A stretch of 64,000 nucleotides of DNA, from NCBI GenBank assembly GCA_011772755.1, contig WVYX01000291.1, positions 27,365 through 91,364 of the forward strand, written 5' to 3'. Origin of the DNA: Gemmatimonadales bacterium (GTDB taxonomy: Bacteria; Gemmatimonadota; Gemmatimonadetes; Gemmatimonadales; GWC2-71-9). The stretch's first letter is position 1, and each line of letters opens with the position of its first letter. This document shows positions 2,917 through 63,572 of the stretch, piece after piece. Below the pieces are notes generated by a model, which worked only from the letters and a program-made list of their open reading frames with translations, made no database searches and had not been told where the DNA came from. The position numbers were made by a program, and so were the translations under genes.

Positions 2917-2943
2917 CCCGTAGCCACCGGCGCCTGCCCCCGG

Positions 2944-8169: not shown

Positions 8170-8283
8170 TGTGGCCTCCACACTTTTTGAACTCCCGCCT
8201 AAAGATGCCGTCTTCCACGGTAACCGGTCAATCGAGAACAGCAGGGCCAGACCGGGAGCCGCGCATCACGCCGAGCAGTTGGC

Positions 8284-8976: not shown

Positions 8977-9152
8977 CGTGGAGACCTTCCTTGGTCGGAC
9001 GCCATCAGCTGTGCCACCGCCCGGTGGCGGCGTCAATATCTAACACTAACCATCCGCTCCGGTCGCCGCTGCAAGGGCGCTGGGTGGCATCTCTTGACAC
9101 GCCTGGGATCCGGCGGGCGTCTTTAGTTCACCGACCTAACAGGACGAGACGT

Positions 9153-10019
9153 ATGGCAAAGCGCCGCCTCAAGGACTTCGACGCTGCTGAGCGGCTCTAC
9201 CGGGCGCGGATCTTCGTGTACTCCCTCATTGCGGGGCCGATCTTCGGCGCGGTTGCCGGGTCCTCGATCGGGAGGGCTATCGGCGTCGACCCGTTCGTCG
9301 CCGCAGCTGTCGGCATTCCGGTAGGCGTGGCCCTGGTCTATTACACCGCCCTAGCTGTGGTCGGCGGCGCAGCCGCGAGTACGGAGAAGATCTACAATCC
9401 GTCCGGCGAGAGCACGCCTCGGGCGCGTGAGTATTCGTATGCCGCCTCGCTGGTGGCCCGGGGGCGCTTCGAGGCAGCGGCCGAGGCGTACGAACTGCAC
9501 GCCATCGAGTACCCGCAAGATCCCGAGCCGTACTTTCAGCTCGCTCGACTGTGTCGGGATCATCTGAACCGACCCCAGGACGCGATCACGTGGTTTCGCC
9601 GGGCACGGGCTGACGCGGAGCTCACTCAAGGCCAGGAGTTGCTCGCCGTTCAAGAGATTATCGACGTTTACATCCACAGGCTCGAGACACCGCGGAGGGC
9701 GATTCCGGAGCTGGTGCTTCTGTGTGAGCGATTCCCCAACACACCCGCCGCCGAGACTGCCCGTCGCGAACTCAGCGAAATGCGAGACATCCTTGCCCGG
9801 GAACACGAAGGCCTGGGGAGCTTCACCTCCCAGTTCCTGAAGAAGGTTGACCGAGGCAGGCTGTCGGCGGCAGCCGGGCTGACCCGGGAGGAACTGGAGA
9901 GACAGATGATCAGTGAGGCACTGCAGGAATGTGGCGACGACCGTCGCCGCGCCGCGGAGAAGCTCGGCGTTCCGTTGGAGAGGCTGGAACGGACGATGCA
10001 TGATCTCGGAATGCTGTGA
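9153..10019 (+). CDS. membrane-anchored TPR-like protein with C-terminal Fis-type HTH
   Basis: Start at ATG 9153. Two hydrophobic helices (IFVYSLIAGPIFGAVAG and AAAVGIPVGVALVYYTALAVVGG), then a helical-repeat middle. Tail LTREELERQMISEALQECGDDRRRAAEKLGVPLERLERTMHDLG resembles HTH_8. Confidence 0.6.
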   Translation: MAKRRLKDFDAAERLYRARIFVYSLIAGPIFGAVAGSSIGRAIGVDPFVAAAVGIPVGVALVYYTALAVVGGAAASTEKIYNPSGESTPRAREYSYAASLVARGRFEAAAEAYELHAIEYPQDPEPYFQLARLCRDHLNRPQDAITWFRRARADAELTQGQELLAVQEIIDVYIHRLETPRRAIPELVLLCERFPNTPAAETARRELSEMRDILAREHEGLGSFTSQFLKKVDRGRLSAAAGLTREELERQMISEALQECGDDRRRAAEKLGVPLERLERTMHDLGML

Positions 10020-10290
10020 GTTCTCGGTCCTACTGTCCTGTCCCTGAAGTCCGTTGCATCTCGCACGCGCCGGTGAGTCCCTTCGGGCACCCACGCGCCG
10101 GCGGACTCGACGCCCGCCCCTAGGTGAGCGATGGACGCCACGAGGGCAGTGTTGGTTCCGAGACCGCCGGTCGTCCGGCGGCCTGCGGGACGCACCGGCG
10201 CATGGCGTTTGTGCAACGAACTCCTGGGACGCCGCACTGGGAATGGGTAGCTATTGCCAACACCCTAGGACCCAGGACCCAGTACCTCGT

Positions 10291-11628
10291 CTACACCAGC
10301 TCCAGCCGCGCCGTGAAGTGACGCAGCACCGGCGCCTCGTAGGTGATCCGCAGACCGCGGATGGACTCCCGCTGCGCATAGAGCTGCGCGCAAACCTCGA
10401 CCACATACTCCAGGTGGCTCCGGGTGTAGACTCGGCGAGGGACGGCCAGGCGCACCAGTTCGAGCTCGGGCCACTCCCCGTCGGCAGCGAACATGAGACC
10501 ACCGATCTCCACGCCACGAACGCCGCCTTCCAGGTACAGGGCACAGGTGAGCGCTTGAGCGGGGAATTGCTCCTGGGGGAGGTGGGGTAGGAAGCGTTTG
10601 GCGTCGAGGTAGACGGCGTGGCCACCCACGGGCTTCACGATGGGGATCCCCGCCTTGCAGAGCGCCTGTCCAAACTCCTGAAGCTGCCCGATGCGGTGCG
10701 CCAGGTAGCGCTCATCCAGTACCTCATCGAGCCCCTGAGCCATGGCCTCCAAGTCTCGTCCCGCCAGACCTCCATAGGTCGGGAAGCCTTCGATCATGAC
10801 CAGCATGTTCTTGAGACGAGCGGCCAGGTCGTCGTCGTTCAGGGCGACGAAGCCTCCGATGTTCACCAGGCCGTCCTTCTTGGCTGACACGGTGCATCCG
10901 TCGGCCAGCTGGAAGAACGCCCGCGCGATCTCCGCGATGCCCTCGCTCTGGTTGCCGCGCACCTTGTTGAAGTAGGCGTTCTCGGCGAAGCGACAGGCAT
11001 CGTAAAAGAACGGGATGTCGTGTCGACGACACCAGTCGGAGACCTGGCTGGCGTTCTGGAGGCTTACCGGTTGGCCGCCGCCGGAGTTGTTCGTGATGGT
11101 GAGGACTACCAAGGGTATCCGCTCACGACCGACCTCGAGCAGCACGCGATCGAGCTTGTGGAGGTCCATGTTTCCTTTGAACGGAACCTCCTCAACGGGG
11201 TCGTAGGCTTCATCGATGACGCAGTTTACCGCCACGCCGTTGTTGTGCTCGATGTTCGCCCGCGTCGTGTCGAAGTGGATGTTGTTGGGCACATGGTCGT
11301 ACGGCTTCACCAAGTTGGTGAACAGGAGGTTCTCCGCCATCCGCCCCTGGTGCGTTGGGATCACGTGCCTGTAGCCCGTGATGCGGCGGACCGTCTCTTC
11401 GAGTCGGAAATAGTTGCGGCTTCCTGCATACGACTCGTCGCCCTGCATCAGGGAGGCCCATTGCTGATCCGACATGGCCGAGGTGCCGGAGTCGGTCAGC
11501 AGGTCGACGGTGATGAGGTGAGACGGAAGGTTGAAGACGTTGTAGCCCGCTTCCTGGAGCGCGGCCTGGCGCTGCTCCCGGCTGGTTACGGGGATAGTCT
11601 CAACGGCTTTGATCTTGAAAGGTTCCAT
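10291..11628 (-). CDS. beta-eliminating lyase, tryptophanase / tyrosine phenol-lyase family (PLP)
   Basis: 445 aa, collinear with TnaA/TPL: LLTDSGTSAMSDQQWA, PTHQGRMAEN, PLP-lysine context SAKKDGLVNIGGF, and C-terminal HFTARLELV. Indole versus phenol specificity cannot be decided by eye. Confidence 0.9.
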   Translation of the reverse strand: MEPFKIKAVETIPVTSREQRQAALQEAGYNVFNLPSHLITVDLLTDSGTSAMSDQQWASLMQGDESYAGSRNYFRLEETVRRITGYRHVIPTHQGRMAENLLFTNLVKPYDHVPNNIHFDTTRANIEHNNGVAVNCVIDEAYDPVEEVPFKGNMDLHKLDRVLLEVGRERIPLVVLTITNNSGGGQPVSLQNASQVSDWCRRHDIPFFYDACRFAENAYFNKVRGNQSEGIAEIARAFFQLADGCTVSAKKDGLVNIGGFVALNDDDLAARLKNMLVMIEGFPTYGGLAGRDLEAMAQGLDEVLDERYLAHRIGQLQEFGQALCKAGIPIVKPVGGHAVYLDAKRFLPHLPQEQFPAQALTCALYLEGGVRGVEIGGLMFAADGEWPELELVRLAVPRRVYTRSHLEYVVEVCAQLYAQRESIRGLRITYEAPVLRHFTARLELV

Positions 11629-11805
11629 GATGTTGACCGGATGAAGGACATGGTCAGCGGGTTCAAGGGAAGATATGCTGGTCGCCAGCCTGTCACGACC
11701 CAGGGTGCCTCCGGGGAGTCTTGCGAATCCGGGCCAGGCCGCGAAATTGGGCGACGCTAATTTGTCTGTTTGGCGCAGCTAAAGATTTGATGCCGGAGGC
11801 TGCCC

Positions 11806-49344: not shown

Positions 49345-51234
49345 ATGAGCGCGCCTATCATGGTCCACGGCTTTCCCAGTCGCGGACGGAGTGGGGACTC
49401 CCCCGGCAACGGCCTGCCCTCGTGGAGTGACCGTCTTGCGGCACTCAAGTACGTGCCGCCTCTCCTCAAGATGGTGTACCAGACCCACCGGGGTTACACC
49501 CTGGCTATCGTTGCCCTCCGAGTGGTGCGGGCTCTGGTCCCGCTCGGGCTCCTGTGGGTCGGCAAGCTCATCATCGAGGCGGTCGAGTTCTCCTATCGCG
49601 ATGCCCAGCCGGTGGACTGGTACCGCCTCGGGACTCTGGTTGCGCTGGAACTCGGGATCGCAGTGGCTGGCGAGGCCTTGGCCCGGGCGTCGGCGCTGTT
49701 CGAGAGCCTGCTGGGCGACCTCTTCTCCAATCGCGTCTCTGTCCGGCTCATGGAGCACGCCGCGCGACTCGACGTGGCACAGTTCGAGGACGACGAGACC
49801 TACGATCATCTCGAGCGGGCGCGGCGGCAGACGGTTGGACGGATCGGGCTGCTGGCGCAGATCCTGAGCACGGTGCAGGATCTAATCACGCTCTTGTCCC
49901 TGGCTGCGGCCCTCATCCTCTATGTGCCGTGGCTCCTCCTACTCCTCGCGGTAGCCGTGATCCCGGCCTTCCTCGGTGAGACGCACTTTGCCGCCCTGGG
50001 CTACTCGCTTCTGTTTCGGTGGACGCCCGAGCGGCGCATGCTGGATTACTTGCGGTTCACGGCGGCAAGCGACGGATCGGCGAAGGAGGTGAAGCTCTTC
50101 CGCCTCGCGCCGTTCCTGGTTGGGCGCTACGCAGGGTTGGCGGACGATTTCTACAGAGCCAACAAGCGACTCTCGACCAAACGGGCTACGGTTTCCACCC
50201 TGCTTGCGGCCGTGGGATCGGTGGGGTACTACGGTGCCTACGCCGTGATCATCTACCTGACGGTGATCGGCTATCGCAGCCCGGCAGGCCTGTTCACCAT
50301 CGGTGTGCTGACATTCCTGGCGGGTTCGTTCCGGCAGAGCCGCGATCTGATCCAGCGAATCCTGCTCATGTTGTCACAGGTGTACGAGCAGAGCCTCTAC
50401 CTACGTGATCTCTTCGCCTTCTTCGAACTCAAGCCGCGTGTCGTTTCAAAGCCTGGTGCAATCGCGGTGCCAAAGCCAATCACCAGGGGATTCCTGTTCG
50501 AGGATGTGAGCTTCAAGTATCCCGGCTCAGACCAGTGGGCAGTTCGCAATCTCAGCTTTGCCCTGCGATCAAACGAGTCGGTGGCCCTGGTTGGGGAGAA
50601 TGGGGCGGGGAAGACGACGCTGGTCAAGTTGCTGTCGCGCCTCTACGATCCGGAGGAGGGACGCATCCTTCTCGACGGCGTGGACCTGCGGGAGTACGAC
50701 TTGGGCAGCCTGTGGGCCAATGTTGGGGTGATCTTCCAGGATTTCGTTCGCTACGCGTTTCTCTTCAAGGAGAACATCGGTGTGGGACAGGTCGAGTACG
50801 TCGATGACGAGGCGCGCATACGCGAGGCAGCCAGGCGGAGCCTGGCTGATTCGGTGGCGCAGCGCCTGGCGGGCGGATTCGACCAACAGTTGGGGCGGCG
50901 GTTTGACGGCGGTGTGGAACTGTCGGGTGGCGAGTGGCAGAAGATCGCACTCGGTCGCGCATACATGCGGGAGGCCCAGGTGCTGATCCTGGATGAGCCC
51001 ACGGCATCGCTGGATGCCCGGGCGGAGTATGAGGTGTTCCTCCGCTTCACCGAGCTCACCCGGGGGCGGATCGCCGTGCTGATCTCCCACCGCTTCTCTA
51101 CGGTGCGGATGGCCGATCGGATACTGGTGCTGCAGGATGGCAGTCTGCTGGAGCACGGTACGCACGAGGAGCTCCTGACCCGCCGCGGCCTGTATGCCGA
51201 GCTGTTCAATCTCCAGGCGGCGGGATACCGCTGA
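49345..51234 (+). CDS. ABC exporter, fused permease/ATPase
   Basis: Six-TM N-terminal half. Walker A GENGAGKTT, signature LSGGEWQK, Walker B LILDEPT. Confidence 0.88.
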   Translation: MSAPIMVHGFPSRGRSGDSPGNGLPSWSDRLAALKYVPPLLKMVYQTHRGYTLAIVALRVVRALVPLGLLWVGKLIIEAVEFSYRDAQPVDWYRLGTLVALELGIAVAGEALARASALFESLLGDLFSNRVSVRLMEHAARLDVAQFEDDETYDHLERARRQTVGRIGLLAQILSTVQDLITLLSLAAALILYVPWLLLLLAVAVIPAFLGETHFAALGYSLLFRWTPERRMLDYLRFTAASDGSAKEVKLFRLAPFLVGRYAGLADDFYRANKRLSTKRATVSTLLAAVGSVGYYGAYAVIIYLTVIGYRSPAGLFTIGVLTFLAGSFRQSRDLIQRILLMLSQVYEQSLYLRDLFAFFELKPRVVSKPGAIAVPKPITRGFLFEDVSFKYPGSDQWAVRNLSFALRSNESVALVGENGAGKTTLVKLLSRLYDPEEGRILLDGVDLREYDLGSLWANVGVIFQDFVRYAFLFKENIGVGQVEYVDDEARIREAARRSLADSVAQRLAGGFDQQLGRRFDGGVELSGGEWQKIALGRAYMREAQVLILDEPTASLDARAEYEVFLRFTELTRGRIAVLISHRFSTVRMADRILVLQDGSLLEHGTHEELLTRRGLYAELFNLQAAGYR

Positions 51235-51474: not shown

Positions 51475-53574
51475 GTGAAGGTCTACAAAGGAGATGCCAT
51501 CCGGAATGTCGCGGTCGTCGGCCACGGCGCGAGTGGCAAGACAAGTCTTGTTGATGCCCTCGCGTTCGTGGCCGGCAGTAGTTCGCGACACGGTTCGGTC
51601 CAGGATGGGACCGCTCTTACCGATCACACTCCCGACGAAATCGAGCGACAGTACTCTATCAACCTCGCCCTCGCCCACGCTGAGTGGAACGGCGTCAAGA
51701 TCAATCTGATTGACACCCCAGGCTACCTCGACTTCATCGGCGATGCGGTGGCTGGGATCTACGCGGCCGATGCGGCCCTGATCGTCGTGTCTGCCACAGC
51801 GGGTGTCGAGGTGGGCACCGAGAAGGTCTGGGAGTATGCTACGGAGCGCGGCATTCCCCGGCTGTTCTTTTTGTCGTTGGAGGACAAAGAGAATGCCGAC
51901 TTCGAGAAGGTCTTCCAGGACATCAAGGCGCACCTGACCTCAAAGGTGATCCCGATCGAAATCCCGATCGGGGAGGGTCCGGAATTCCGTGGGATCATCA
52001 ACCTCTTTTCCCGGAAGTGCCACGTCTACAAGAAGGGCACCAAGACCGGGGAGTACGACGAAGAAGAGGCGCCTGAGGAATACCAGGAGCGGCTCGAACG
52101 CTACTCGCAAGAGCTCATTGAAACGATCGCCACCACCAATGACGAACTCCTCGAACGTTATTTGGGCGGTGAGGAGATTTCTCGAGAAGAGGCGATCACG
52201 GCAATGAAGGACGGTATGGCTCGAGGGGAGCTGTGCCCGCTGTTGTGCGGCTCGGCGCAGCTCACCTACGGCGTGCGGGGGGTCCTGACGAAGCTGGTGG
52301 AATTGGTCCCGCCGCCGTCGGAGCGCCCGGCTCTGCGGGGGGAGACCTGGGGTGAGGTGAAGCCGATTGACGTCAGCGCGGTCGACGACGCGCCGTTCGT
52401 CGCCCAGGTCTTCAAGACGGTGTCCGAACCCCACGTCGGCGACGTCTCGTTCTTCCGGATCTACTCCGGGGCTGTGTCCAACGGTGCCGTAGTGTTCAAC
52501 GCGCCGCGAGGTTCGGCCGAGAAGCTCAACCACCTGTCGGTCACCCAAGGGAAGGATCGGGCCGAGGCTCCCTTGCTGCACGCGGGTGATATCGGCGTGG
52601 TGGCGAAGCTCAAGGACACACACACCAACGACACCCTGTCGACGCAGGGCACACCCGTCGTGCTGTCGAAGATCCCGTTCCCGGACCCGCTCACGGTGCT
52701 GTCTGTGAAGGTGAAGCAGCGGGGGGAGGAGGACAAACTCTCCACCGGGCTGCACAAGCTGCATGAGGAAGACCCCACCTTCCGGCACGAGTACAACGGA
52801 GAGCTCCAGCAGACGCTGATCAGCGGTCGGGGAGAGCGGCATCTGGAGGTGATCGTGGGGCGCTTGGAACGGAAGTTCGGTGTGCACGCCGAGCTTGGGA
52901 AGCCACGCATCGCGTACCGGGAGACGTTTCAGAAGAAGGCCGAAGGGCAGGGGCGCCACAAGAAGCAAACCGGCGGACGCGGCCAGTTTGGCGACTGCTG
53001 GATACGTATCTCACCGCTCGCGCGGGGTGAGGGTTACGAGTTTGTAGACCAGATCAAGGGCGGCGTGATCCCCAACAAGTACGTTCCCGCTGTTGACAAA
53101 GGAATTCGGGAAGCAGCTCGGCGAGGGACGTTCGCAGGCTATCCCACGGTGGACTTCAAAGTCGAGTGCTATGACGGATCGTACCACGACGTGGACAGCA
53201 GTGAGCAATCCTTCAAGATGGCTGGGATTCTGGCGTTTCGGAACGTAGCGCCCGGTGCGCACCCTGTGCTGCTCGAACCGATCCTGGAAGTGGACATCTG
53301 GACGCCCGAGGAGAACCTGGGCGACGTGATGGGCGACTTGTCGGCGCGTCGCGGTCAGATCCTTGGCAGCGAACCGGACAACCGGCTCGCGAAGGTGCGT
53401 GCGTTCGTTCCCGAAGCCGAGATGTACCGGTACGCTACGCAGCTCCACTCGATGACGCACGGCCGTGGCACCTTCCGTTGGACGTTTTCCACGTATCAGG
53501 AGGTACCGCCCGAGATCGCGGAGAAGGTGCGCGAAGAGCGGCGAAAGGAGTTGGAGAAAGAGAGCGGCAGGTAG
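51475..53574 (+). CDS. elongation factor G paralog (EF-G2-like)
   Basis: GTG start 9 nt after GGAGG. G1 reads GHGASGKTS rather than the AHIDAGKTT of canonical EF-G. DTPGYLDF, and domains II-V collinear with EF-G. Not in a str-operon context. Confidence 0.88.
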   Translation: MKVYKGDAIRNVAVVGHGASGKTSLVDALAFVAGSSSRHGSVQDGTALTDHTPDEIERQYSINLALAHAEWNGVKINLIDTPGYLDFIGDAVAGIYAADAALIVVSATAGVEVGTEKVWEYATERGIPRLFFLSLEDKENADFEKVFQDIKAHLTSKVIPIEIPIGEGPEFRGIINLFSRKCHVYKKGTKTGEYDEEEAPEEYQERLERYSQELIETIATTNDELLERYLGGEEISREEAITAMKDGMARGELCPLLCGSAQLTYGVRGVLTKLVELVPPPSERPALRGETWGEVKPIDVSAVDDAPFVAQVFKTVSEPHVGDVSFFRIYSGAVSNGAVVFNAPRGSAEKLNHLSVTQGKDRAEAPLLHAGDIGVVAKLKDTHTNDTLSTQGTPVVLSKIPFPDPLTVLSVKVKQRGEEDKLSTGLHKLHEEDPTFRHEYNGELQQTLISGRGERHLEVIVGRLERKFGVHAELGKPRIAYRETFQKKAEGQGRHKKQTGGRGQFGDCWIRISPLARGEGYEFVDQIKGGVIPNKYVPAVDKGIREAARRGTFAGYPTVDFKVECYDGSYHDVDSSEQSFKMAGILAFRNVAPGAHPVLLEPILEVDIWTPEENLGDVMGDLSARRGQILGSEPDNRLAKVRAFVPEAEMYRYATQLHSMTHGRGTFRWTFSTYQEVPPEIAEKVREERRKELEKESGR

Positions 53575-53597
53575 GCGTTACGTGGGAATTGCTGGGC

Positions 53598-53628
53598 GGC
53601 AGTGGGGCGCCGCGCGCGCCCTACTGCC
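53598..53628. terminator. hairpin between convergent EF-G2 and kamA-like genes
   Basis: 13-bp arms GGCAGTGGGGCGC / GCGCCCTACTGCC (one mismatch) with a 5-nt loop, followed by GTTTGCGTCTTG on the plus strand. The right arm covers the kamA-like stop codon. Confidence 0.5.
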
Positions 53629-54820
53629 GTTTGCGTCTTGTCGGCTTCCGGTTGCCGTTTCCGGATCTGGCGGAGCGATTGTTTCGGCCGAGCGACACCT
53701 CATTGTTGAAGAGCGGGAGCGATCCGTAGTCCGACTCTGGCGCGCCCGCCTCGACCAGAGCCTCTTCCCGTGGCTGCGTCCATACGTACCGCTCGCCCCG
53801 GTAGTTTCGCAATACGACCTCCGATTCCGTGATGCTCTCGACGTACTCGGGGAGCAGGGGGATCTTGCCGCCGCCGCCTGGCGCGTCGATCACAAAGTGG
53901 GGAACGGCCAGCCCGCTGATCCAGCCCCGCAGACCAAGGATGATCTCTAGACCCTTTTCCACGTTCGTCTTGAAGTGCTCTACGCCAGCGACGTTGTCGC
54001 ACATGAAGATGTAGTAGGGACGCACGCGGGCGGTCAGGAGCCTCTGCATGAGTTCCCGCATGACTTCCACGTCGTCGTTCACTCCCTTGAGCAGCACAGT
54101 CTGGCAACCCAGCGGAATCCCGGCATCAGCGAGCATCTCCAGGGCGCGAACGGCCGCCGGGGTCAACTCGGCCGGATGGTTGAAGTGGGTGTTGATGTAC
54201 AGCGGGTGGTGCTTGGCTAGCACCTTGCAGAGGGCCGGTGTGATGCGCTCAGGCAGATGGCACGGGATTCGGCTCCCGATACGGATCACCTCCAGGTGCT
54301 TGATCTTCCGCAATCGACCCAGGATGAGACTGAGCCGACGGTCAGAGAGGAGCAGAGGATCCCCACCGGAGAGGATGACGTCACGAATCTCGACGTGCTG
54401 TTCGAGGTAGCGGAATGCGCTCTCTAGCTGCGCCATCGGAATCTTCTGGGGGTCACCCACCTTCCGGCGGCGGGTGCAGAACCGGCAGTAGGCTGCACAC
54501 ACCGGACTGACCAAGAAGAGCACCCGATCGGGATAACGATGGGTGATGTTGGGGACCGGACTGTCCGCGTCCTCGTTCAGACTGTCAACGACTCCGTCGA
54601 TTACCTCCAGCTCCTGGAGATCGGGCATGTACTGGCGCCAGATCGGATCGCCGGGTTCCTGAATGAGGTCGACCATTGCCGGCGAGATCCGGAACTCGAA
54701 GTTGTCCACCGCCGCCTGCAAGCGCGGCAAGTCTGGGAAATGCTCTGGCCCGAACTTGTCGACGAGCTGTCGCAGCGTACGGATGCCTCGGTCGTGAAGA
54801 AGCTTCTGCCATTCAGCCAT
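53621..54820 (-). CDS. KamA-family radical SAM 2,3-aminomutase (lysine 2,3-aminomutase-like)
   Basis: CAAYCRFCTRR (CxxxCxxC), SGGDPLL, and GxxxxAxPxFVIDAPGGGGK near the C-terminus. Collinear with KamA/AblA/EpmB. Confidence 0.9.
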   Translation of the reverse strand: MAEWQKLLHDRGIRTLRQLVDKFGPEHFPDLPRLQAAVDNFEFRISPAMVDLIQEPGDPIWRQYMPDLQELEVIDGVVDSLNEDADSPVPNITHRYPDRVLFLVSPVCAAYCRFCTRRRKVGDPQKIPMAQLESAFRYLEQHVEIRDVILSGGDPLLLSDRRLSLILGRLRKIKHLEVIRIGSRIPCHLPERITPALCKVLAKHHPLYINTHFNHPAELTPAAVRALEMLADAGIPLGCQTVLLKGVNDDVEVMRELMQRLLTARVRPYYIFMCDNVAGVEHFKTNVEKGLEIILGLRGWISGLAVPHFVIDAPGGGGKIPLLPEYVESITESEVVLRNYRGERYVWTQPREEALVEAGAPESDYGSLPLFNNEVSLGRNNRSARSGNGNRKPTRRKRQ

Positions 54821-55334
54821 GGTGCGCCGTCTCTGTCGTGGGAGGAGCGAGATGCTTGGTGTAGACGATCAAGTCGTCGCCAGGCGCGTAGTAGTCCGCG
54901 ATGTGAGCGGCTCGCGTGTAGTCCAGCACCTCGTAGAACGCACGCGTCGGCCCGTAGTCCGGACGAGATGACGTCTCAATGACTATGAGCCGGCCGCCGC
55001 GGGAACGAATGGCCTCTTCGCTGGCGAACATCAGCTGCCGGCCGATGCCACGGCGCTGCACCGCTGGGTCGACCACGATCCAGTAGATATCCCACGTTGC
55101 GAGGGTGCAGGGAGTCGGACCGTACAGCGAGAACCCGACGAGTCTCGAGTCCTCGAACGCCCCCAGGGCGGTGTAGTCAGCTTCTGGATCTGCGATGGCA
55201 TCGTCAAAGACTTCCAGTGCAACGGCGACTTCGTCAGGGCGAAACACGGCGGTGGCCTGTACGCTCTCCCGGACCCGCGGTCGGTCGGCTGCGCTGGGAG
55301 CGCGAAGCGTGATCACGGCGTCGCCGACGCTCAT
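54813..55334 (-). CDS. GNAT family N-acetyltransferase
   Basis: 173 aa with acetyl-CoA motif VQRRGIGRQL. Its ATG shares ATGA with the upstream stop, and its stop overlaps the kamA-like ATG by 8 nt. Confidence 0.85.
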   Translation of the reverse strand: MSVGDAVITLRAPSAADRPRVRESVQATAVFRPDEVAVALEVFDDAIADPEADYTALGAFEDSRLVGFSLYGPTPCTLATWDIYWIVVDPAVQRRGIGRQLMFASEEAIRSRGGRLIVIETSSRPDYGPTRAFYEVLDYTRAAHIADYYAPGDDLIVYTKHLAPPTTETAHHG

Positions 55335-56482
55335 GCCGGCTGGTGCTCCCCGGACCTGAGAGCCTGCCCGTCATGGCGGAGGACCGCGATCTGAGGGGCA
55401 GCCCCGACCGCCGCATGGGCGAGGGCGGCGTCAACGATATGGGAGACCAGGTCGTCGTAAGACCAGCCGAAGGCGCGTGCCATGTTGACCAGGCCGGCGT
55501 CGCTGGAGATGTCTGGACTCGGGTTGACCTCGAGGACCCAAGGCTGTCCGTCGGGATCGACGCGCATGTCCACGCGGCCATATCCGCGCCCGTGGACAGT
55601 ACGCCACGCCGCTCTGGCCACGTGGCGCAGGCTTTCCTCCAACGGCGCGGTGACCTTCGCAGGACAAACCGGCAGCGTGCCGACGTATTCATCGCAGCCG
55701 GGTTTCCACTTGGCGTCGAACGAGACGATCGGCCAGGCACCGTCGGGCATCGCGCCGAAGTCGATCTCCGATAGGGGCAGGATGTGGTCGCCCACGAATG
55801 CGACCGCGAGTTCACGGCCGTGGATGTACTCCTGGACCATGATCCCGCCATAGGACCGCGCCATCGAGGCCACCCGCTCCTCGAGCTCAGCGCGCGTCGT
55901 CGCGACGGACGCCTGCTCGATACCGACGCTGGCGTCTTCCTCTGCCGGCTTGACGATGGCGGGAAGGGGGAACGTCTCGGGCACCGTTTGATCGTGGGGC
56001 ACGTGCCAGCGCGGGATCGGAAGGCCGGCGGCCTGAAGCACGGCGTTGAGCAGCGGCTTCCGGTGGCAGACGGTCATCGTCCATGCCGAGCAGCCGGTGT
56101 ATGGCTTGCCGGCGAGTTCGATAGCTGAGGCGACCTTGTACTCCAGGTGACTGATGCCGCCGATGCCCTCGCAGAGGTTGAAGATGAGGTCCGCACCCCG
56201 GATGGCGTCGAACCATGCCAGGTCCGGCAGCACCCCGACCTGCTCGACGTCGTGACCGGCCGCGACAAGGGCGCGGCTAACCTCGGTCACGGGCTCGAGC
56301 ACCGACTGGATGTCCTCTGCGCTCCAGTCGTCGGCTCCGCCGTCGTAGATCACGGCGATTCTCAGCTGACCGCTCCAGCCAGGGTTGTCTTCAGCTCTTT
56401 GCCGGTCTGCCGGCGCCACGCGATCCGGGTGACCGTCTGGATCAGCTCGTCGTACGTCATGCCCGCCGCAGTTGCTGCGCAT
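55331..56482 (-). CDS. D-Ala-D-Ala-ligase-like ATP-grasp enzyme (second copy)
   Basis: LRIAVIYDGG N-terminal Rossmann-like strand, then KP...SVGI, MVQEYIHGRE and RVDMRVD...VLEVNPSPD. The true start is ambiguous (ATG 56482, GTG 56419, or near 56363) and in every case overlaps the upstream gene's end. Confidence 0.8.
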   Translation of the reverse strand: MRSNCGGHDVRRADPDGHPDRVAPADRQRAEDNPGWSGQLRIAVIYDGGADDWSAEDIQSVLEPVTEVSRALVAAGHDVEQVGVLPDLAWFDAIRGADLIFNLCEGIGGISHLEYKVASAIELAGKPYTGCSAWTMTVCHRKPLLNAVLQAAGLPIPRWHVPHDQTVPETFPLPAIVKPAEEDASVGIEQASVATTRAELEERVASMARSYGGIMVQEYIHGRELAVAFVGDHILPLSEIDFGAMPDGAWPIVSFDAKWKPGCDEYVGTLPVCPAKVTAPLEESLRHVARAAWRTVHGRGYGRVDMRVDPDGQPWVLEVNPSPDISSDAGLVNMARAFGWSYDDLVSHIVDAALAHAAVGAAPQIAVLRHDGQALRSGEHQPA

Positions 56483-57447
56483 GGAAAGCAGCTGTGCGCC
56501 ACGGGATCCGGCATGAGGCCGGGAAGCGGATTGACCTCCAGCACGTGGGGAATGCCTGCGGCGTCGAGCCGGAGGTCGACCCGAGCCCAGTCGCGACAGC
56601 CCAACACGTGATACGCAGCGAGCGCGGTCTCACGCAGCGACGCCGTGAGCCCTGCCGACACTTGGGCCGGACACTCGAGCACCTCGAAGTCGGCGTCCGG
56701 CTGATCCCACAGCCATTTGGCTTCGTACCCCATGATCGGGAGTGCGCCATCCGGAAGGACGCCGAAGCGGAAACGGATGATCGGCAGGGCGTCGGCATCG
56801 GCACCGTTGCCCAGTATCGCTGCCGTGAACTCCTCACCGGCGAGGTAGGTCTCGGCAAGCACCGGCTGCTCGTAGGTCGCCAGCAGGTGTCTGACGCGCT
56901 CGCGGGCTTCGTCCGGGGTCGTTACGTGGCTGGCTTCTGCTATTCCTTTAGAAGAGCCTTCCCACACCGGCTTGAGGAACAGCGGATAGCTCGCGACCTG
57001 GTCGAGCGCCGGTAGGTCAGCTTCGGATTCGATCAGCACCGATGGCGGGGTCGGCACGCCCCGCTGCGCGAATATCTCCTTGGCGCGGCCCTTGTGGAGC
57101 GCGAGGGCGAGCGTGAGCGGATCGCTCCCGAGGTAGGGGATGCCAAGGAACTCCGCGATGGCCGGCACGTGCGATTCGCGGCTCGCTCCGCTCGTGCCTT
57201 CGGCCATGTTGAACAGGAAATCAACTTCCGCGTCACGCAGGCGCTGGGGGAAGCCATTGACGGCTTCCAGGAATACGACCTCGCCGAAGACGCGAAGTGC
57301 GTCTCCCACGGCGGCGATCGTTTCTGGCTCGTCCCATTCGACGAACGCGTCGACAGGACGAGGAGGCTCGTGGGAGGGACGAGGATCAGCATCGCCATCG
57401 TCTGCGACACCGTCCGGTCGTTGATTGAAAGCGAGCCCTATGCGCAA
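56362..57447 (-). CDS. D-Ala-D-Ala-ligase-like ATP-grasp enzyme (first copy)
   Basis: TTG start 5 nt after GGAG. MRIGLAFNQ followed by an acidic/Pro-rich insert. FLKPVWEGSSKGI, AETYLAGEEF and RVDLRLD...VLEVNPLPG. Confidence 0.8.
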   Translation of the reverse strand: MRIGLAFNQRPDGVADDGDADPRPSHEPPRPVDAFVEWDEPETIAAVGDALRVFGEVVFLEAVNGFPQRLRDAEVDFLFNMAEGTSGASRESHVPAIAEFLGIPYLGSDPLTLALALHKGRAKEIFAQRGVPTPPSVLIESEADLPALDQVASYPLFLKPVWEGSSKGIAEASHVTTPDEARERVRHLLATYEQPVLAETYLAGEEFTAAILGNGADADALPIIRFRFGVLPDGALPIMGYEAKWLWDQPDADFEVLECPAQVSAGLTASLRETALAAYHVLGCRDWARVDLRLDAAGIPHVLEVNPLPGLMPDPVAHSCFPCAATAAGMTYDELIQTVTRIAWRRQTGKELKTTLAGAVS

Positions 57448-57617
57448 TCGAACTCCAATCGGAGTTTCTGTTGCGGCACACGATAAAAAATGATGGCGAG
57501 ATGCGCAATACTCTTTTTGTGATTTCCTGCCGCGAGTTTTCGGAGCGATACCCGCACGACCGCGTGTTCGATGCGGTCAACGGTGCGTTGTGACAGGTAT
57601 CGGAGGAAGGGAAAGAG

Positions 57618-58984: not shown

Positions 58985-60661
58985 CTATTGCGCCTTCCCT
59001 TCAGCAAGCAACTCCAGCTTGGAAGCGCCCCAGCCACCGGTGTGCTCCATCTTTCGAAGTCCCCGAGCGACGTCGGCGGGAATGGCGGCCGCGCGAGACC
59101 CGACCTTGAGATTCGCGATGGGGACAGTCAGGGAGTCCGGGATGACCACCCCGGGATTCATGATGCCCGCCGGATCAAACACGCGCTTCACGAGCCGGAA
59201 AAGCTCCATGATCTCGGATCCGTACACGTGCTCCAGCACGGCGGCGCGCAGCCGCCCGTCGCCGTGCTCTCCGCTCGGGGTTCCGCCCAGCCGAGTGACG
59301 AGCTGGGTCACGTCCCAGAACAGCCGCAGAAGGCGCTCTTCGAATTCGGGCACCGTGGTGTCGACCACCGCGTTGACGTGCAGGTGTCCGTCGCCGGCGT
59401 GCCCGAAGGCCGCGATGTCGATGCCGGCATCCTGTGCGGCGGCACGCACGCCCGACAGGTATTCCCCGAGATGTGGGACCGGCACGCACCCGTCTTCAAT
59501 GATCTGCAGCGAGCGTCGGTTATCGGGCAGGGTGGCGAGGGCAGGACTGGCAGCGTGTCGTAACGCCCACAGCCGGGCGTGCTCCTCATCGCTCAACGCG
59601 CTCTCGGCATAGGAGCAAACATCCGAGGTCAGCCTCACCGCCTCGTCCACAGCCGCCTCGGCGGCCTGGACACTGGACCGCTCGAAGTCGACCAGCAGGA
59701 CGGCGGCCTTCTCCTGGAGCAACGGAAACGCCCCGCTGCTGGTCAGCGCGAGAAATGACTGGTCGAGTAGCTCAACGGCTGCTGGATCGAGCGTCAGCAG
59801 GCGATGGGCCACTTCGCCGAGGCCGGCGAGGTCGTCCACCGCGAGTAGCAGGCCCGCGACGGCCGGTGGGCGGGCTTCGAGAGTCAGCTCGACTCGGGTG
59901 ATCACGCCGAGGGTGCCTTCCGATCCGATGACGAGGTCGACCAGATCACCGGAGTGGAGATATGCGTCGAGGGCATAGCCCGAGGAGTTCTTGCGGGTGG
60001 CGGGGAAGCGCCGGCGGATGGTGGATTCGCTTCGCACGATCTTCCGATGGGCCTGCTGGCTGAAGCGCTGTTCGATCGGCCCACCCTTCGCCGGGAATGA
60101 CGCGTCCTGGGACTCGCTGGCCTCCAGTGCAGTGGTATCACGGCGTGCTAGCTGTACCACCTCGCCGTCGCTGGTGACGAGGTCGAGGCTGCGGACCCAT
60201 GGCCGAATGGAGCCAGCTCGCACGCTGCGAGCACCGGCCGCGTTGGTGGCCACCATCCCACCGATTGTGCAGAAGGTCCCGCTTGCAGGATTCGGTGCCA
60301 GCCGCAGCCCCAGCGGTTCGGCCTTGCTGTCCAGCGCGCCCCAGGTCACCGCGGCACCGACTTCGGCCGTCTCATCAGGGGAGATGCGGAGCGGCGAGTC
60401 CAACTCTTGGAGGTCGAGGATGATGCCCTGCCCCACATTGCCCCCTGCCATGCCGCTGCCTGCTCCCCGGGGTACCAGAGGCCAGCCGCGCTCCGCACTG
60501 AACCGCACGAGGCGCACCACGTCTTCGCAGTCGGCGGGAATCGCTACGGCGCTCGGCAGGATGCGGTAGGGGCCGGCACCCTCGCTGTAGGCGGCGCGGG
60601 CTGAGCGTTCGGTGAGGAATCGACCGCGGAATCCCTCAGGCGGGGTCAATCGGCTTCGCAT
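58985..60661 (-). CDS. FAD-linked oxidase (GlcD / D-lactate dehydrogenase / AGPS superfamily)
   Basis: PCMH-type FAD domain (VPRGAGSGMAGG, GTFCTIGGMVATNAAG) and C-terminal FAD-oxidase_C (GEHGDGRLR). Confidence 0.85.
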   Translation of the reverse strand: MRSRLTPPEGFRGRFLTERSARAAYSEGAGPYRILPSAVAIPADCEDVVRLVRFSAERGWPLVPRGAGSGMAGGNVGQGIILDLQELDSPLRISPDETAEVGAAVTWGALDSKAEPLGLRLAPNPASGTFCTIGGMVATNAAGARSVRAGSIRPWVRSLDLVTSDGEVVQLARRDTTALEASESQDASFPAKGGPIEQRFSQQAHRKIVRSESTIRRRFPATRKNSSGYALDAYLHSGDLVDLVIGSEGTLGVITRVELTLEARPPAVAGLLLAVDDLAGLGEVAHRLLTLDPAAVELLDQSFLALTSSGAFPLLQEKAAVLLVDFERSSVQAAEAAVDEAVRLTSDVCSYAESALSDEEHARLWALRHAASPALATLPDNRRSLQIIEDGCVPVPHLGEYLSGVRAAAQDAGIDIAAFGHAGDGHLHVNAVVDTTVPEFEERLLRLFWDVTQLVTRLGGTPSGEHGDGRLRAAVLEHVYGSEIMELFRLVKRVFDPAGIMNPGVVIPDSLTVPIANLKVGSRAAAIPADVARGLRKMEHTGGWGASKLELLAEGKAQ

Positions 60662-60694: not shown

Positions 60695-61777
60695 CTAGGA
60701 AGGTGTCGCTACCGGCGCTGGCGGGCGACGGCGCCACCAGGCATCTCCAGCCAGCCTCCGGAAATAGGTTCGCACTAGCGTGTTGCTGGGTGCGACGAAC
60801 CGGGTCATGGCGAGCGTCCGGTACACATCTCCCCGGGTGATCTTGACCTTGTGGTGAGGGTCTAGCAGGCGCTTGTCGCGCTCAGCGAGGCGCAGCGTTC
60901 GTACGGCGAAGTAGAGCGACGCCAGGCAGAAGCGGCGGATGCCGTACTGGGTGCGGGACAGGGTCGTAGAATAGTCGAGGGCGTCCAGTAGGTGGGTCTT
61001 GGTCTTGTCGATCAGCGCCAGCATGACCCGCCGACCCTCCTCGCGGTGGCGCTCGTCTTGGAGGTCCTCTGGGCAAATGCCGACGACTTGACAGAGCTGC
61101 CGCGGGACAAAGCTCCACCCCCGGCGGCGATCGTCGGCGACGTCCTTGATGATGTTGGTGAGTTGCAGGCCTCGCCCAAAGCTCGTCGCCAACGATTTGA
61201 GTCGTGCGTAGCGACGAGCACCTCCCGATCTGCCGTGCAGGTGGAACAGATCGGTTAGGAGATGTCCTACGGTACCGGCGACGTAGTAGCAGTAACGGTC
61301 GAGCTCATCGATCGTCGCCAGCGCCTCGAGGCCCTTGCCACCGGCGTCGTCCCTGCGCCTGGAGAACTCCGCCATTCCGGCGCTCATCTCCTTGACCCAT
61401 GGCCGGACGGCGTCCTGCTGGGCAGCGGGGAGTTGGCGAAACTCCCGCAGGATCGTGTCTGCCTCACGAGCCAGCAGCTCGTGATCGGAGCTGGGCTCAG
61501 CGAAAGCGGTCTGGAGCGGTTCGGCATCCGGCCCGCCAGCATCGAGGCATCGGCTGAAGTGCTGCAACAGGTGGTCCTTCTGTCCTGCGGCGAGCTCGAT
61601 CGAGTCCTCGATCGTGTCGGCGATGCGGCACAGGAGGTATGCGACCAACACTGAATAGTCGAGGGGCGCCGGAAGAAGGCGGATGCATATAGCGAACGTG
61701 CGGGAAACCCTGGGCAACATCTCGACGCAGAGAGCCCGATCTGCGGCACTCGACGGCGCCACCATTGTGCCCGTCAT
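60695..61777 (-). CDS. squalene/phytoene synthase family protein (squalene-synthase-like)
   Basis: Start at ATG 61777, which shares ATGA with the upstream stop. SRTFAICIRLLP, first Asp-rich motif RIADTIED, YCYYVAGTVG, and second Asp-rich motif IKDVADD. Confidence 0.8.
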   Translation of the reverse strand: MTGTMVAPSSAADRALCVEMLPRVSRTFAICIRLLPAPLDYSVLVAYLLCRIADTIEDSIELAAGQKDHLLQHFSRCLDAGGPDAEPLQTAFAEPSSDHELLAREADTILREFRQLPAAQQDAVRPWVKEMSAGMAEFSRRRDDAGGKGLEALATIDELDRYCYYVAGTVGHLLTDLFHLHGRSGGARRYARLKSLATSFGRGLQLTNIIKDVADDRRRGWSFVPRQLCQVVGICPEDLQDERHREEGRRVMLALIDKTKTHLLDALDYSTTLSRTQYGIRRFCLASLYFAVRTLRLAERDKRLLDPHHKVKITRGDVYRTLAMTRFVAPSNTLVRTYFRRLAGDAWWRRRPPAPVATPS

Positions 61778-63021
61778 CGCTGATGAGCCGCCGGACGTGC
61801 CTTCCACGGAATCCACCGCGGCGCTAGTAGCCGCCATGAAAACAGGGTGCGCGGATCGACAGTCTCGTTCAGCACTCCAGCCGCGGCGCGCCGGAGCGCC
61901 GGGTTTCGGCGTACCCGACGTGCAACGAAGTCGTTGACCCACGCCTTCGACAGCCAGTTTGCCGCGACCCGATAGCCGACGTAGCGGGGCGCGAGCTCAT
62001 CTCGAAGTACCCGAGGAAAGGTCGCGAGGGACCCAAGGTCGCCGCCTTTCAGCGCGCGTGTGATGTGGAGCGCAGCGAGTTCGCCGGTTTCCATCGCTTT
62101 GCCGATGCCCTCCCCTGTGAACGGAAACGTAGTACCGATCGTCTCGCCAATGGAGAGGATGTGGGCTCCATCATAGGATGCCTCCCGGTCCAGTCCACAC
62201 CGGAGTCGTGCCCCCTGAAGCCGGCTCACGGACTCCGCCGCGTCGAGCAGCTGGCGGGCCGGCGGGAACCCCTGGGTGAACGCGCTGAACGCGGCCCGTA
62301 GGTTCACTCTATTCGGCCACGTGCCTTGGTAGAAAGCCCCGCAGCCCACGTTGTACTCGTTGTTTCCGAGCGGAAAGATCCATGCATACCCCGGAATGAT
62401 CGATCGATGGAACGAGATGATGAGCTCATCAATCGTCAGTGGCGAGCGTACGTAGCAGCGGAGCGCCACCGCGCTTGGTTGCCGCTGGCGGATCATCCCC
62501 AGGCGGCTTGCCAGCGATATGTCGGCCCCCGTGGCCAGGACGCCGACGCGGGCGCGAACGCGGCACTCCGAGCCCACGAAGGCTGCGCTGATGCAGTCGG
62601 GCTCCGGACGCAGGCTCGCGACCTCGGCGACTCGAAACACAGCACCGCTCGCCACCGCCGCCTCTTGAAGGAGCTGGTCTAGACGGCGCCGCCGGATGGT
62701 GACGAACTCCCCTGGGACGTCAACGCGGATATCCGATGAGCTGAAGGCCGCCAGGATCTCAGCGGCGTAGCCGTGTGAGCGAATCCGACGGTAGAGCCCC
62801 GCTCGGCGGAGGGCTTGCAAGGCGTCGGAAATGAGCGCATCGCCGCAGACCTTGTCCCGAGGGAAGTGCTGCTTGTCCACCAGGAGCACCGTGTGGCCGT
62901 GCCCGGCGATGCAGCGGGCGGCCGTCGAACCAGCGGGGCCCGCGCCGACCACGACGGCATCCCATACGCGGTCCGCAACCTGGTGGAGGTTGGGCTCTGG
63001 CGGTTGCGGGCCGTCGATCAT
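61774..63021 (-). CDS. geranylgeranyl-reductase-family FAD-dependent oxidoreductase
   Basis: Start at ATG 63021, which shares ATGA with the upstream stop. WDAVVVGAGPAGSTAA...LLVDK...KVCGDAL is the typical GGR-family N-terminus. Confidence 0.8.
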   Translation of the reverse strand: MIDGPQPPEPNLHQVADRVWDAVVVGAGPAGSTAARCIAGHGHTVLLVDKQHFPRDKVCGDALISDALQALRRAGLYRRIRSHGYAAEILAAFSSSDIRVDVPGEFVTIRRRRLDQLLQEAAVASGAVFRVAEVASLRPEPDCISAAFVGSECRVRARVGVLATGADISLASRLGMIRQRQPSAVALRCYVRSPLTIDELIISFHRSIIPGYAWIFPLGNNEYNVGCGAFYQGTWPNRVNLRAAFSAFTQGFPPARQLLDAAESVSRLQGARLRCGLDREASYDGAHILSIGETIGTTFPFTGEGIGKAMETGELAALHITRALKGGDLGSLATFPRVLRDELAPRYVGYRVAANWLSKAWVNDFVARRVRRNPALRRAAAGVLNETVDPRTLFSWRLLAPRWIPWKARPAAHQR

Positions 63022-63572
63022 GAAGAGGGCCTTCCGAAGCGCGTGGTCACGGCATCCAGAATCCGACGCAGGATCTGATCGCCGGGGTGCCCTGGCGGCA
63101 CCATCATTTCCACTTCTCGCGGGGGGACCGACGGATCCAGGGTACGGCGTGAGACAGCCTCCGCCACGAGCTGCGTCTCGTTTTCTCCGACGGGATCGGC
63201 GAAGAAACGAAAGCGGACCGCCCGTTCCGGATCGCGGGCGTAGGCGCCGCCCGGTTGGCGCGCGACCACGTCGTACCAATCGGTTTCCAAATATCCCTCC
63301 TCCGGACTCGACCAGCGGAGTCTCAGCCCTTCCACCGCGACGAGGGCGGCTATCTCCCTGATGAGGGTGGCAGGATCCGCCGCCAGCGTGTCAGTCGGCG
63401 CGTCCGGGAGCGGGGTGAGGTACGGCCGTATACTGCCTGCGCCACATGCCGCTGTGGCCAGGACGGCTGCCACCCAGACGGCCCATGACCAAAGTTGCCG
63501 CGTGCGCGATACGACTTCGCTACTACTACTCGTGTTCGTGCTCCGGAGTGCCCGGCGGGTCCGTGTGGTCAT
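63018..63572 (-). CDS. hypothetical lipoprotein
   Basis: ATG 63572 is the only plausible start upstream of the signal/lipobox WAVWVAAVLATAACG. It overlaps the 3' end of the next gene by 47 nt. No recognisable family. Confidence 0.5.
   Translation of the reverse strand: MTTRTRRALRSTNTSSSSEVVSRTRQLWSWAVWVAAVLATAACGAGSIRPYLTPLPDAPTDTLAADPATLIREIAALVAVEGLRLRWSSPEEGYLETDWYDVVARQPGGAYARDPERAVRFRFFADPVGENETQLVAEAVSRRTLDPSVPPREVEMMVPPGHPGDQILRRILDAVTTRFGRPSS

Follow-up and report, generated by a model that had tools for sequence, protein, structure and literature searches.

A four-gene operon joining a lysine 2,3-aminomutase-like enzyme to two Ddl-like ATP-grasp ligases, a candidate pathway for N-acetylated beta-lysyl small molecules in a Gemmatimonadales bacterium

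What could a lysine 2,3-aminomutase-like radical SAM enzyme be making when it is encoded together with two Ddl-like ATP-grasp ligases and an acetyltransferase? The question is raised by four genes on the minus strand of the window (the whole stretch of 64,000 nucleotides analyzed here), where the ligases G1 and G2, a GNAT N-acetyltransferase, and a KamA-family aminomutase follow one another with overlaps of 4, 4, and 8 nt (Table 1). All four open reading frames, and the CAAYCRFC motif of the last, were found where an earlier note on this DNA had placed them. Our reading is that the operon, transcribed from its own promoter, would direct the ATP-grasp-driven, non-ribosomal synthesis of a cytoplasmic N-acetylated beta-lysyl di- or tripeptide-like small molecule, likeliest a compatible solute or a polyamine-like cation, and we give it a probability of about 0.55.

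Table 1. Features of the operon, in coordinates of the window.
Feature	Position	Strand	Remarks
G1: Ddl-like ATP-grasp ligase	56362-57447	minus	361 aa, TTG start
G2: second Ddl-like ATP-grasp ligase	55331-56365	minus	344 aa from CTG 56365 (most likely start)
GNAT N-acetyltransferase	54813-55334	minus	173 aa; ATGA overlap with G2
KamA-family radical SAM/PLP aminomutase, lysine 2,3-aminomutase-like	53621-54820	minus	399 aa; CAAYCRFC
Promoter-like block	57480..57508	minus	TTGCGC (57508-57503), 17-nt spacer, TATCGT (57485-57480); then GGAG Shine-Dalgarno at 57456-57453

Two of the junctions could be read directly in the sequence just as described before, ATGA between G2 and the GNAT (55331 to 55334) and ATGGCTGA between the GNAT and KamA (8-nt overlap, 54813 to 54820). 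The overlap claimed for G1 and G2 also exists, but it amounts to only 4 nt (CTGA) and does not extend to the far-upstream ATG. The longest open reading frame of G2 starts at that ATG (56482), 121 nt inside G1, a start that is not conserved among relatives, while the homologous position reads CTGA in the window and in the relative L001, ATGA in L087, and TTGA in L086. For this reason CTG 56365 is most likely the start of G2, with GTG 56353, 8 nt past the G1 stop, as the alternative, and the long overlap was rejected. The TTG start of G1 is preceded by the GGAG, and L001 has an ATG at the matching position. Gene overlaps recur in other phyla and leave no space for additional genes. Upstream, the promoter-like block is kept in L001 and L002 as TTGCCA-17-TATCGT, while conservation does not extend to the stretch of the spacer nearest folA; a consensus promoter scan of the sequence gave no flag at the block, which may nevertheless be the operon's own promoter. 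The operon sequence was found in DNA runs only, with no RNA run holding it.

To evaluate how widely the arrangement is distributed, we used a sample of 80 species genomes bearing a G1 relative, all from phyla other than Gemmatimonadota. KamA was adjacent to G1 in 55 of them and the order G-G-GNAT-KamA was collinear in 33, with 3 to 4 more holding all four genes; the same genes in the same order were found in five Gemmatimonadota genomes. Since the order recurs in both sets, the arrangement is more than chance, and the synteny on which the earlier note had staked its proposal is indeed seen elsewhere. Altogether, roughly fifteen lineages of bacteria carry the KamA-ligase core, as do at least two groups of archaea, Bathyarchaeia among them, and the full set occurs in about nine bacterial lineages, Desulfovibrionales (as KamA-G-G-GNAT) also carrying the cluster. 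A lone ligase beside KamA was G1-like at 7/7 loci, G1 being the type found with KamA throughout, and the ligase in second position was G2-like at 29/30; the two ligases form old orthologous groups in a fixed order. Natural fusion proteins are also found, KamA-G1 (P0250, P0331, and P0381), G1-KamA (P0320), and many G1-G2 tandems, and the KamA/G1 fusions tie the ligases to the aminomutase.

Besides the ligases, KamA, and the GNAT, the gene families recurring at several of the 80 loci were RecG, sigma54-type activators, ABC ATPases, and a small number of genes confined to particular lineages; no transporter, peptide gene, or riboswitch was conserved alongside the set. In Gemmatimonadota the setting is one of housekeeping genes (thyA and folA), and the convergent neighbor is throughout a paralogue of EF-G. 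Locus L071 has a nearby gene with a mechanosensitive-channel TM-helix domain, and there is a marine vent habitat, each a single observation that hints at an osmotic linkage.

The aminomutase is 50% identical to Clostridium LAM (PDB 2A5H; 3e-108) and belongs to the KamA family by its TIGR00238 score (279.1 bits, cut-off 199.2). It fell below the cut-off on every equivalog model, yet the AblA model TIGR03820 was the best-scoring subfamily (432 bits against 525.4) and the EpmB model TIGR03821 the lowest (229 bits against 369.3). In cluster KamAs from 10 other lineages the LAM/AblA model likewise ranked first (461 to 527 bits). Placement in the EpmB clade, which had been named beforehand as an outcome that would tell against the proposal, was therefore not what we found. 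In LAM, Asp293 and Asp330 bind the epsilon-ammonium of lysine. The window protein keeps both, together with C125, C129, C132, R134, and the PLP-binding K337; among the other 59 KamAs of the alignment, which come from clusters or fusions, the three cysteines are invariant (59/59), K337 is present in 58 (only the frameshifted L014 fragment lacks it), D293 in 57, and D330 in 58. The alignment thus bears out the expectation of a LAM-like enzyme with a lysine-type binding site, and formation of beta-lysine from L-lysine is likely rather than proven, because the AblA equivalog cut-off is missed.

In fold, and in the residues for ATP, Mg, and catalysis, both ligases match Ddl and Ddl-like L-amino-acid ligases. 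G1 matches Pfam Dala_Dala_lig_C (6e-30) and G2 is 32% identical to it; K97, K144, E187, K215, R255, D257, E270, and N272 are kept in ~30/30 members of both families, and both ligases match E180 as well. They differ from Ddl, however, in scores below the cut-off of 243 for the subfamily NF002378 (162.4 bits for G1, 138.5 for G2), in changed D-Ala-site residues, and in their context, with no Mur ligase, flippase, or dcw gene near the operon. Numbered and aligned on E. coli DdlB, the first 68 residues of which come from a provisional sequence, His63 is replaced by Glu and Tyr216 by Trp in both families. G1 keeps Ser281 and has Cys at 282, while the pocket of G2 carries S150A, Y210V, G276D, H280D, S281A, and L282G. 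As judged from these alignments, the two substrate pockets are remodelled systematically and differently in each ligase, and the donor and acceptor roles proposed below are putative.

The GNAT matches Pfam Acetyltransf_1. It had no match to the AblB model TIGR03827 at E <= 0.001, with only weak RimI- and AAC(6')-like matches, and identity as AblB was ruled out. Its family is instead that of PDB 2R7H (1e-28, ~42% identity over 150 residues), a structural-genomics entry described as a "putative D-alanine N-acetyltransferase of GNAT family," a name that appears to derive from neighboring Ddl-like genes; a protein 99% identical to 2R7H sits in a Desulfovibrionales KamA-G-G-GNAT cluster. The GNAT is found in about two thirds of KamA-linked clusters; those of archaea, Omnitrophota, Planctomycetia, and Clostridia lack it, and an acetylated product would therefore not be universal.

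From enzyme families, residues, and gene linkage, a pathway of four steps can be proposed. The KamA-type enzyme, using radical SAM and PLP and a lysine-type site, would convert L-lysine to beta-lysine. G1, the ligase genetically tied to KamA, would take this beta-lysine directly, most likely activating its carboxylate as an acyl phosphate, and couple it to an acceptor resembling an amino acid, through the amine of the latter; it keeps the Ddl acceptor-carboxylate residues, and its donor site gains an acidic residue (H63E). G2 would then form a second amide bond, probably as a hetero-dimeric partner of G1, as many organisms fuse the two. Two Asp residues are new in its acceptor site and the Ser that binds the carboxylate is gone, so that the acceptor may be a cationic amine, e.g., a free amine on the beta-lysyl intermediate. 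Finally, the GNAT may acetylate a leftover free amine. The earlier interpretation, a ligase pathway built on beta-lysine or another beta-amino acid, gains support from the synteny, the LAM-like site, and the KamA-ligase fusions, and its product is a putative one. A point against our reading is that a beta-lysyl peptide left without an acetyl group would be a cation, and compatible solutes are not usually cationic.

A precedent in logic is Ngg, a GNAT plus ATP-grasp enzyme that makes the dipeptide osmolyte N-acetylglutaminylglutamine amide (NAGGN) and in which the same two activities likewise yield an N-acetylated cytoplasmic small peptide. Ngg, however, is one fused protein that works with an amidotransferase (AsnO), and its ligase domain is not known to be Ddl-like, whereas the operon has separate Ddl-type ligases, a separate GNAT, and an enzyme forming a beta-amino acid; no amidotransferase was recognized among the annotated neighbor families of the 80 loci. 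The gene set is thus not that of the NAGGN pathway.

The same enzymology could serve a secreted antimetabolite or antibiotic dipeptide comparable to bacilysin or tabtoxin, with the GNAT for self-protection. Dipeptides of this sort are known products of Ddl-like ATP-grasp L-amino-acid ligases, and the GNAT weakly matches the tabtoxin resistance protein 1GHE. We nevertheless consider this unlikely, as no exporter, regulator, or resistance or immunity gene is conserved beside the core across the 80 loci, the ABC exporter of the window (49345 to 51234) is missing from the relatives L001 and L085 to L087, and the cluster lies within conserved housekeeping synteny throughout the whole order, unlike a patchy biosynthetic island.

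Quite unlikely, too, is that a protein or ribosomal peptide is the target of the ligases, giving a beta-lysylated translation factor or a graspetide-like RiPP. Two ATP-grasp ligases and an N-acetyltransferase are also the enzyme set of microviridin graspetides (MdnB, MdnC, and the GNAT MdnD), RimK-like ATP-grasp enzymes modify proteins, EpmB/EpmA (acting on EF-P) likewise pairs a KamA-family aminomutase supplying beta-lysine with a ligase, and an EF-G paralogue adjoins the operon across Gemmatimonadota. But this neighbor was not found at loci outside that phylum, and no conserved small open reading frame was found in or beside the operon, whose genes overlap in several phyla. Unlike microviridin clusters, the operon has no precursor peptide gene and has an extra free-amino-acid aminomutase; its ligases are Ddl-type by Pfam, not of the RimK or graspetide type, nor are they lysyl-tRNA-synthetase paralogues as in EpmA. 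KamA keeps its free-lysine-binding residues, and EpmB identity, the worst-scoring of the subfamilies, was ruled out, with neither efp nor epmA in the operon or its annotated flanks (thyA, folA, and the EF-G paralogue).

A cell-envelope role, in which the Ddl-like enzymes would make a peptidoglycan stem-peptide or cross-bridge unit with beta-lysine, would fit the closest solved structures of the ligases, all of them D-Ala-D-Ala or D-Ala-D-Lac ligases (1e-29 and 1e-23). We regard it as decidedly improbable given the scores below the Ddl cut-off, the His63 and Tyr216 replacements in both families, the loss of Ser281 and Leu282 in G2, and the genomic context. Moreover, Bathyarchaeia and other archaea, which are not known to have murein, also carry the KamA-G1-G2 core. 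Of the two roles suggested in the earlier note, solute or envelope modification, the second is thereby weakened and the first kept as the most likely.

AblAB makes N-epsilon-acetyl-beta-lysine in methanogens and some bacteria, and the operon might be a plain system of this type, with both ligase genes as unrelated passengers. The LAM-type aminomutase, which scores best on AblA and keeps the Asp pair, and the accompanying GNAT are shared features. Genome papers routinely annotate KamA plus GNAT in this way, as for ablA/ablB of Pelobacter carbinolicus (PMC3543383). This is very improbable here, however, as the GNAT falls outside the AblB type and the aminomutase, with its shorter C terminus, does not reach the AblA cut-off. 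The two inserted ligases are the most constant partners of KamA, more so than the GNAT, and in several lineages form a single protein with it; clusters lacking the GNAT exist, but no KamA cluster in the sample lacks ligases. Lysine fermentation via beta-lysine, of which KamA is the first enzyme, is barely credible, since no downstream fermentation enzyme was recognized among the annotated neighbor families recurring at several of the 80 loci and two ATP-consuming ligases are ill-suited to an energy-yielding pathway.

The N-acetylated beta-lysyl small molecule thus remains our preferred product. No published description of this gene set was found in the literature searched, in agreement with the earlier statement that no characterized pathway has this composition. 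More tentatively, the operon may represent a new and very widespread class of beta-lysine-based small molecules assembled by ATP-grasp ligases, either N-acetyl-beta-lysyl di- and tripeptides or short beta-lysine oligomers, which could act as a new compatible solute or a polyamine-like cytoplasmic cation.

The two Ddl-like ATP-grasp ligases (G1 and G2), the GNAT and the KamA-like aminomutase form a biosynthetic operon that is real, strongly conserved and apparently uncharacterised; no description of the four-gene set was found in the searched literature, from which subscription journals were mostly excluded. The four minus-strand open reading frames proposed in the earlier note were confirmed on the sequence, as were the ATGA junction between G2 and GNAT, the sharing of ATGGCTGA by the GNAT stop and the KamA start, and the CAAYCRFC motif of the KamA-like protein. 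The overlap that it described between the two ligase genes also exists, although the start of G2 had to be moved. The longest G2 frame opens at ATG 56482, a start that is not kept in relatives, while the codon at the G1 stop reads ATGA in L087, TTGA in L086 and CTGA in the window and L001 (L-numbers denote loci in other genomes, these three from related Gemmatimonadota), and the RIAVIYDGG encoded after the CTG aligns with the first beta-strand of Ddl. On these grounds, G2 would best be drawn from the CTG. The start codon of G1 is ATG at the equivalent position in L001, and since homologues are some 360 aa long and the position of the start codon (TTG/ATG) is conserved, the public G1 call in the source assembly (P0121, 315 aa, 87% of the ORF) is probably too short.

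Coordinates of the operon, its neighbors and features of comparable loci in other genomes
Feature	Locus	Position	Strand	Remarks
ABC-type ATPase/exporter-like gene	window	49345-51234	+	629 aa; between SDR and EF-G paralogue
EF-G paralogue	window	51475-53574	+	699 aa with the full set of five EF-G domains; oriented towards the operon, 46-nt gap to the KamA stop codon
Spacer between KamA and EF-G	window	53575-53620		46 nt; opens with GC-rich palindrome GGCGCGCGCGGCGCC
KamA-like gene	window	53621-54820	-	starts at the ATG of ATGGCTGA (54813-54820)
GNAT	window	54813-55334	-	start within ATGA (55331-55334), which holds the G2 stop
G2	window	55331-56365	-	CTG start, 4-nt overlap with G1; GTG 56353 as fallback start
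G1	window	56362-57447	-	TTG start, GGAG 5 nt before
FAD-linked oxidase	window	58985-60661	-	FAD_binding_4 + FAD-oxidase_C; between thyA and squalene/phytoene synthase
Squalene/phytoene synthase, then FAD-dependent lycopene-cyclase or geranylgeranyl-reductase-like oxidoreductase	window	60695-63279	-	longest ORFs overlap
Mechanosensitive-channel TM-helix protein	L071 (Planctomycetia)	6233-6910		small; directly upstream of the two ligases and KamA
Sigma54-type activator	L083/L084 (Desulfovibrionales)	about 1860-3310		precedes the cluster
GNAT + histone-deacetylase-like fusion	L084 (Desulfovibrio mangrovi)	7629-9386		585 aa; after the cluster
Both ligases without KamA	L033 (Myxococcota)	9271-11474
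KamA in two frames	L014 (Candidatus Chrysopegis kryptomonas)	10621-11645		split near 11376

A spacer of 170 nt separates folA from G1. Its approximately 60 nt nearest G1 align well with L001 and L002 (the latter another relative) and the folA-proximal part does not, which suggests that the four genes are transcribed from a promoter of their own. The conserved block contains TTGCGC-17 nt-TATCGT in the window and TTGCCA-17 nt-TATCGT in L001 and L002; it emerged only from aligning relatives, as a scan for consensus promoters and terminators gave nothing above chance. The palindrome at the opposite end could be a hairpin terminator, lacking a T-run, shared with the EF-G paralogue.

To evaluate co-occurrence, one genome per GTDB species was scanned with a trimmed N-terminal G1 profile (its motif VFNIAEG is specific to the family and is not a Ddl motif). 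A G1-type ligase was present in at least 598 species-level genomes, and the 80 loci kept for analysis were tallied by tblastn with the four window proteins. The association postulated in the earlier note held widely: KamA adjoins G1 in 55 of the 80 loci, and the two ligases, GNAT and KamA are collinear in 33 (Ignavibacteriota/Bacteroidota, Kryptonia, Aminicenantes, KSB1 and Desulfuromonadales). All four genes occur in other orders in 3 to 4 loci (Chloroflexia, Anaerolineales, Auribacterota), adjacent ligases and KamA without GNAT in 7 (Omnitrophota, Planctomycetia, Peribacteria and two archaea), KamA-G1 plus an oppositely oriented G2 in 5 (Bathyarchaeia) and G1-KamA only in 6 (Clostridia, Lentisphaerae). 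About 15 loci, mostly from Myxococcota, have adjacent ligases and no KamA. In a neighbor-joining tree, the first ligase was G1-like in 28 of 29 loci, the second G2-like in 29 of 30, and the lone ligase beside KamA G1-like in all seven cases. An exhaustive profile search with G1 also retrieved KamA-G1 fusion proteins (P0250, P0331, P0381), a G1-KamA fusion (P0320) and numerous G1-G2 tandem proteins of ca. 650 to 720 aa. Enzyme classes and functional linkage are well supported. The split KamA of Candidatus Chrysopegis kryptomonas reflects a frameshift or an assembly error. In Myxococcota (L031, L033, L076 and others), the ligases are followed by a Peptidase_S58 (DmpA/BapA-type aminopeptidase) and by another ORF judged by eye to be glutathione-synthetase or RimK-type ATP-grasp-like, possibly a related pathway with a different amino acid.

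The only model whose cutoff the KamA-like protein exceeded was that of the KamA family as a whole (279 bits, cutoff of 199). Among the subfamily models, most of them suggested in the earlier note, AblA/lysine 2,3-aminomutase (LAM) scored best (432 bits, cutoff of 525), followed by those for glutamate 2,3-aminomutase (379, cutoff of 650), arginine 2,3-aminomutase (322, cutoff of 600) and AblA-like-2 (320, cutoff of 396); the EpmB model scored lowest (229, cutoff of 369), placing the protein outside that family. It shares 50% identity with the crystallised LAM of Clostridium subterminale (2A5H), of which it keeps Cys125/129/132, Arg134 and Lys337 as well as Asp293 and Asp330, the two holders of the lysine epsilon-ammonium that the earlier note had singled out. 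Cluster KamAs from ten other lineages likewise scored first with the LAM/AblA model (461 to 527 bits) and last with EpmB, and they keep the lysine-site residues in the alignment.

G1 and G2 are both Ddl-like (Pfam Dala_Dala_lig_C) and only 32% identical to each other; by sequence, both matched solved Ddl structures unambiguously. They fall outside Ddl itself, with 162 and 139 bits against an NCBIfam subfamily cutoff of 243 and with different D-Ala-site residues. The alignment to Escherichia coli DdlB included about 30 sequences per ligase family (DdlB residues 69 to 304 checked; residues 1 to 68 from a provisional sequence, with numbering consistent at E15, H63 and D69). K97, K144, E187, K215, R255, D257, E270 and N272 are kept in both, and E180 is kept in G1 and is Gln in the G2 of the window (Glu in 28 of 31 family members). 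In both ligases His63, from the provisional stretch, is replaced by Glu and Tyr216 by Trp. G1 keeps Ser150, Gly276 and Ser281, with Cys for Leu282, Met for Tyr210 (Tyr in 28 of 30 members) and His280, which is Asn in most members; the corresponding G2 residues are Ala150, Asp276, Ala281, Gly282, Val210 and Asp280. From this pattern, both look like active ligases. In Ddl, Ser281 helps to position the carboxylate group of the second substrate. In the alignment, the acceptor site of G1 is Ddl-like and its donor site is more acidic; the acceptor site of G2 is acidic and lacks a carboxylate holder.

No AblB match was found for the GNAT by HMM. Its sole strong relative of solved structure is 2R7H (1e-28, ca. 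42% identity), a structural-genomics entry that bears the name "putative D-alanine N-acetyltransferase" and is itself uncharacterised. A protein 99% identical to the GNAT fragment of 2R7H and its Desulfovibrio mangrovi homologue are both encoded in KamA-G-G-GNAT clusters (G-G, adjacent ligases). The fusion that follows the cluster in D. mangrovi hints at an acetylation/deacetylation cycle.

We propose that KamA makes beta-lysine, which G1 would use directly, as indicated by the KamA/G1 fusions and the minimal G1-KamA pairs, most likely activating its carboxylate and joining it to an amino-acid-type acceptor. G2 would form another amide bond, with a cationic amine as acceptor, and the tandem fusions suggest that it probably does so as a hetero-dimer with G1; GNAT, where present, would acetylate a remaining amine. 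Substrate order, product and physiological role are inferred from these data; the product would be a small molecule resembling an N-acetyl-beta-lysyl di- or tripeptide. The logic resembles that of the dipeptide osmolyte NAGGN, which is made by a GNAT and ATP-grasp route. The operon would work like the AblAB pathway for N-epsilon-acetyl-beta-lysine extended by ligases. KamA plus GNAT pairs are commonly labelled ablAB in genome papers (e.g., PMC3543383), but this label would be wrong here, given the AblA score below the cutoff and a GNAT that is not of the AblB type.

A cytoplasmic role, as compatible solute or polyamine-like cation, is favored, although it is the weakest step, because the operon lies among housekeeping genes and neither an exporter nor an immunity gene nor a precursor is conserved with it. 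A secreted antibiotic is less favored; the exporter-like ABC gene of the window is missing at the equivalent place in L001 and L085 to L087 (related Gemmatimonadota) and is therefore probably a local insertion outside the operon. Protein or RiPP modification is also less favored: no RiPP precursor or conserved small ORF was found, the genes overlap in other phyla too, and, unlike graspetide clusters, the operon has no precursor gene. Catabolism ranks below the cytoplasmic role as well, and so does a cell-wall unit, since the operon genes occur in archaea.

Upstream on the same strand are folA, thyA, the FAD-linked oxidase (also in L087 and not in L001, L085 or L086), squalene/phytoene synthase and the FAD-dependent oxidoreductase, the last two being an isoprenoid gene pair conserved in Gemmatimonadota. 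The arrangement SQS_PSY-(oxidase)-thyA-folA-G1-G2-GNAT-KamA/EF-G recurs in four further Gemmatimonadota genomes; the position of the EF-G paralogue is not kept in other phyla. A folate link (thyA-folA in the window, folC in five loci) was rejected because the Bacillota loci resemble valS-folC synteny (valS judged from the size of a large neighboring gene) and folC lies 5 to 7 kb off elsewhere. Clustering of flanking ORFs showed RecG (in Ignavibacteria), sigma54 activators and ABC ATPases to be lineage-specific and not constant partners. Pfam matches of co-directional neighbors were unrelated or single cases (AI-2E transporter, HcyBio, S58 peptidase in Myxococcota and a mechanosensitive-channel TM-helix protein); the last, in L071, fits an osmotic role in that one case. 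Rfam searches of the whole window and 11 related loci gave tRNAs and a 5S fragment only, with no riboswitch or leader. Hydrothermal-vent metagenomes contain nearly identical sequence, and the sequencing runs matching the window were DNA metagenomes only.

The automatic names "ddl," "rimI-like" and "kamA" hide this four-gene unit. The question is directly testable, since the cluster occurs in lineages with cultured members (Desulfovibrio mangrovi, Ignavibacterium album, Desulfuromonas). Should a new beta-lysine peptide be made by this operon, it would represent a new family of beta-amino-acid metabolites, 2R7H would gain a function and two new ATP-grasp ligase specificities would become available for enzymatic beta-peptide synthesis. 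Such a peptide would probably also be new as a stress solute or polyamine analogue in the poorly studied Gemmatimonadota, Ignavibacteriota, Kryptonia and Bathyarchaeia.
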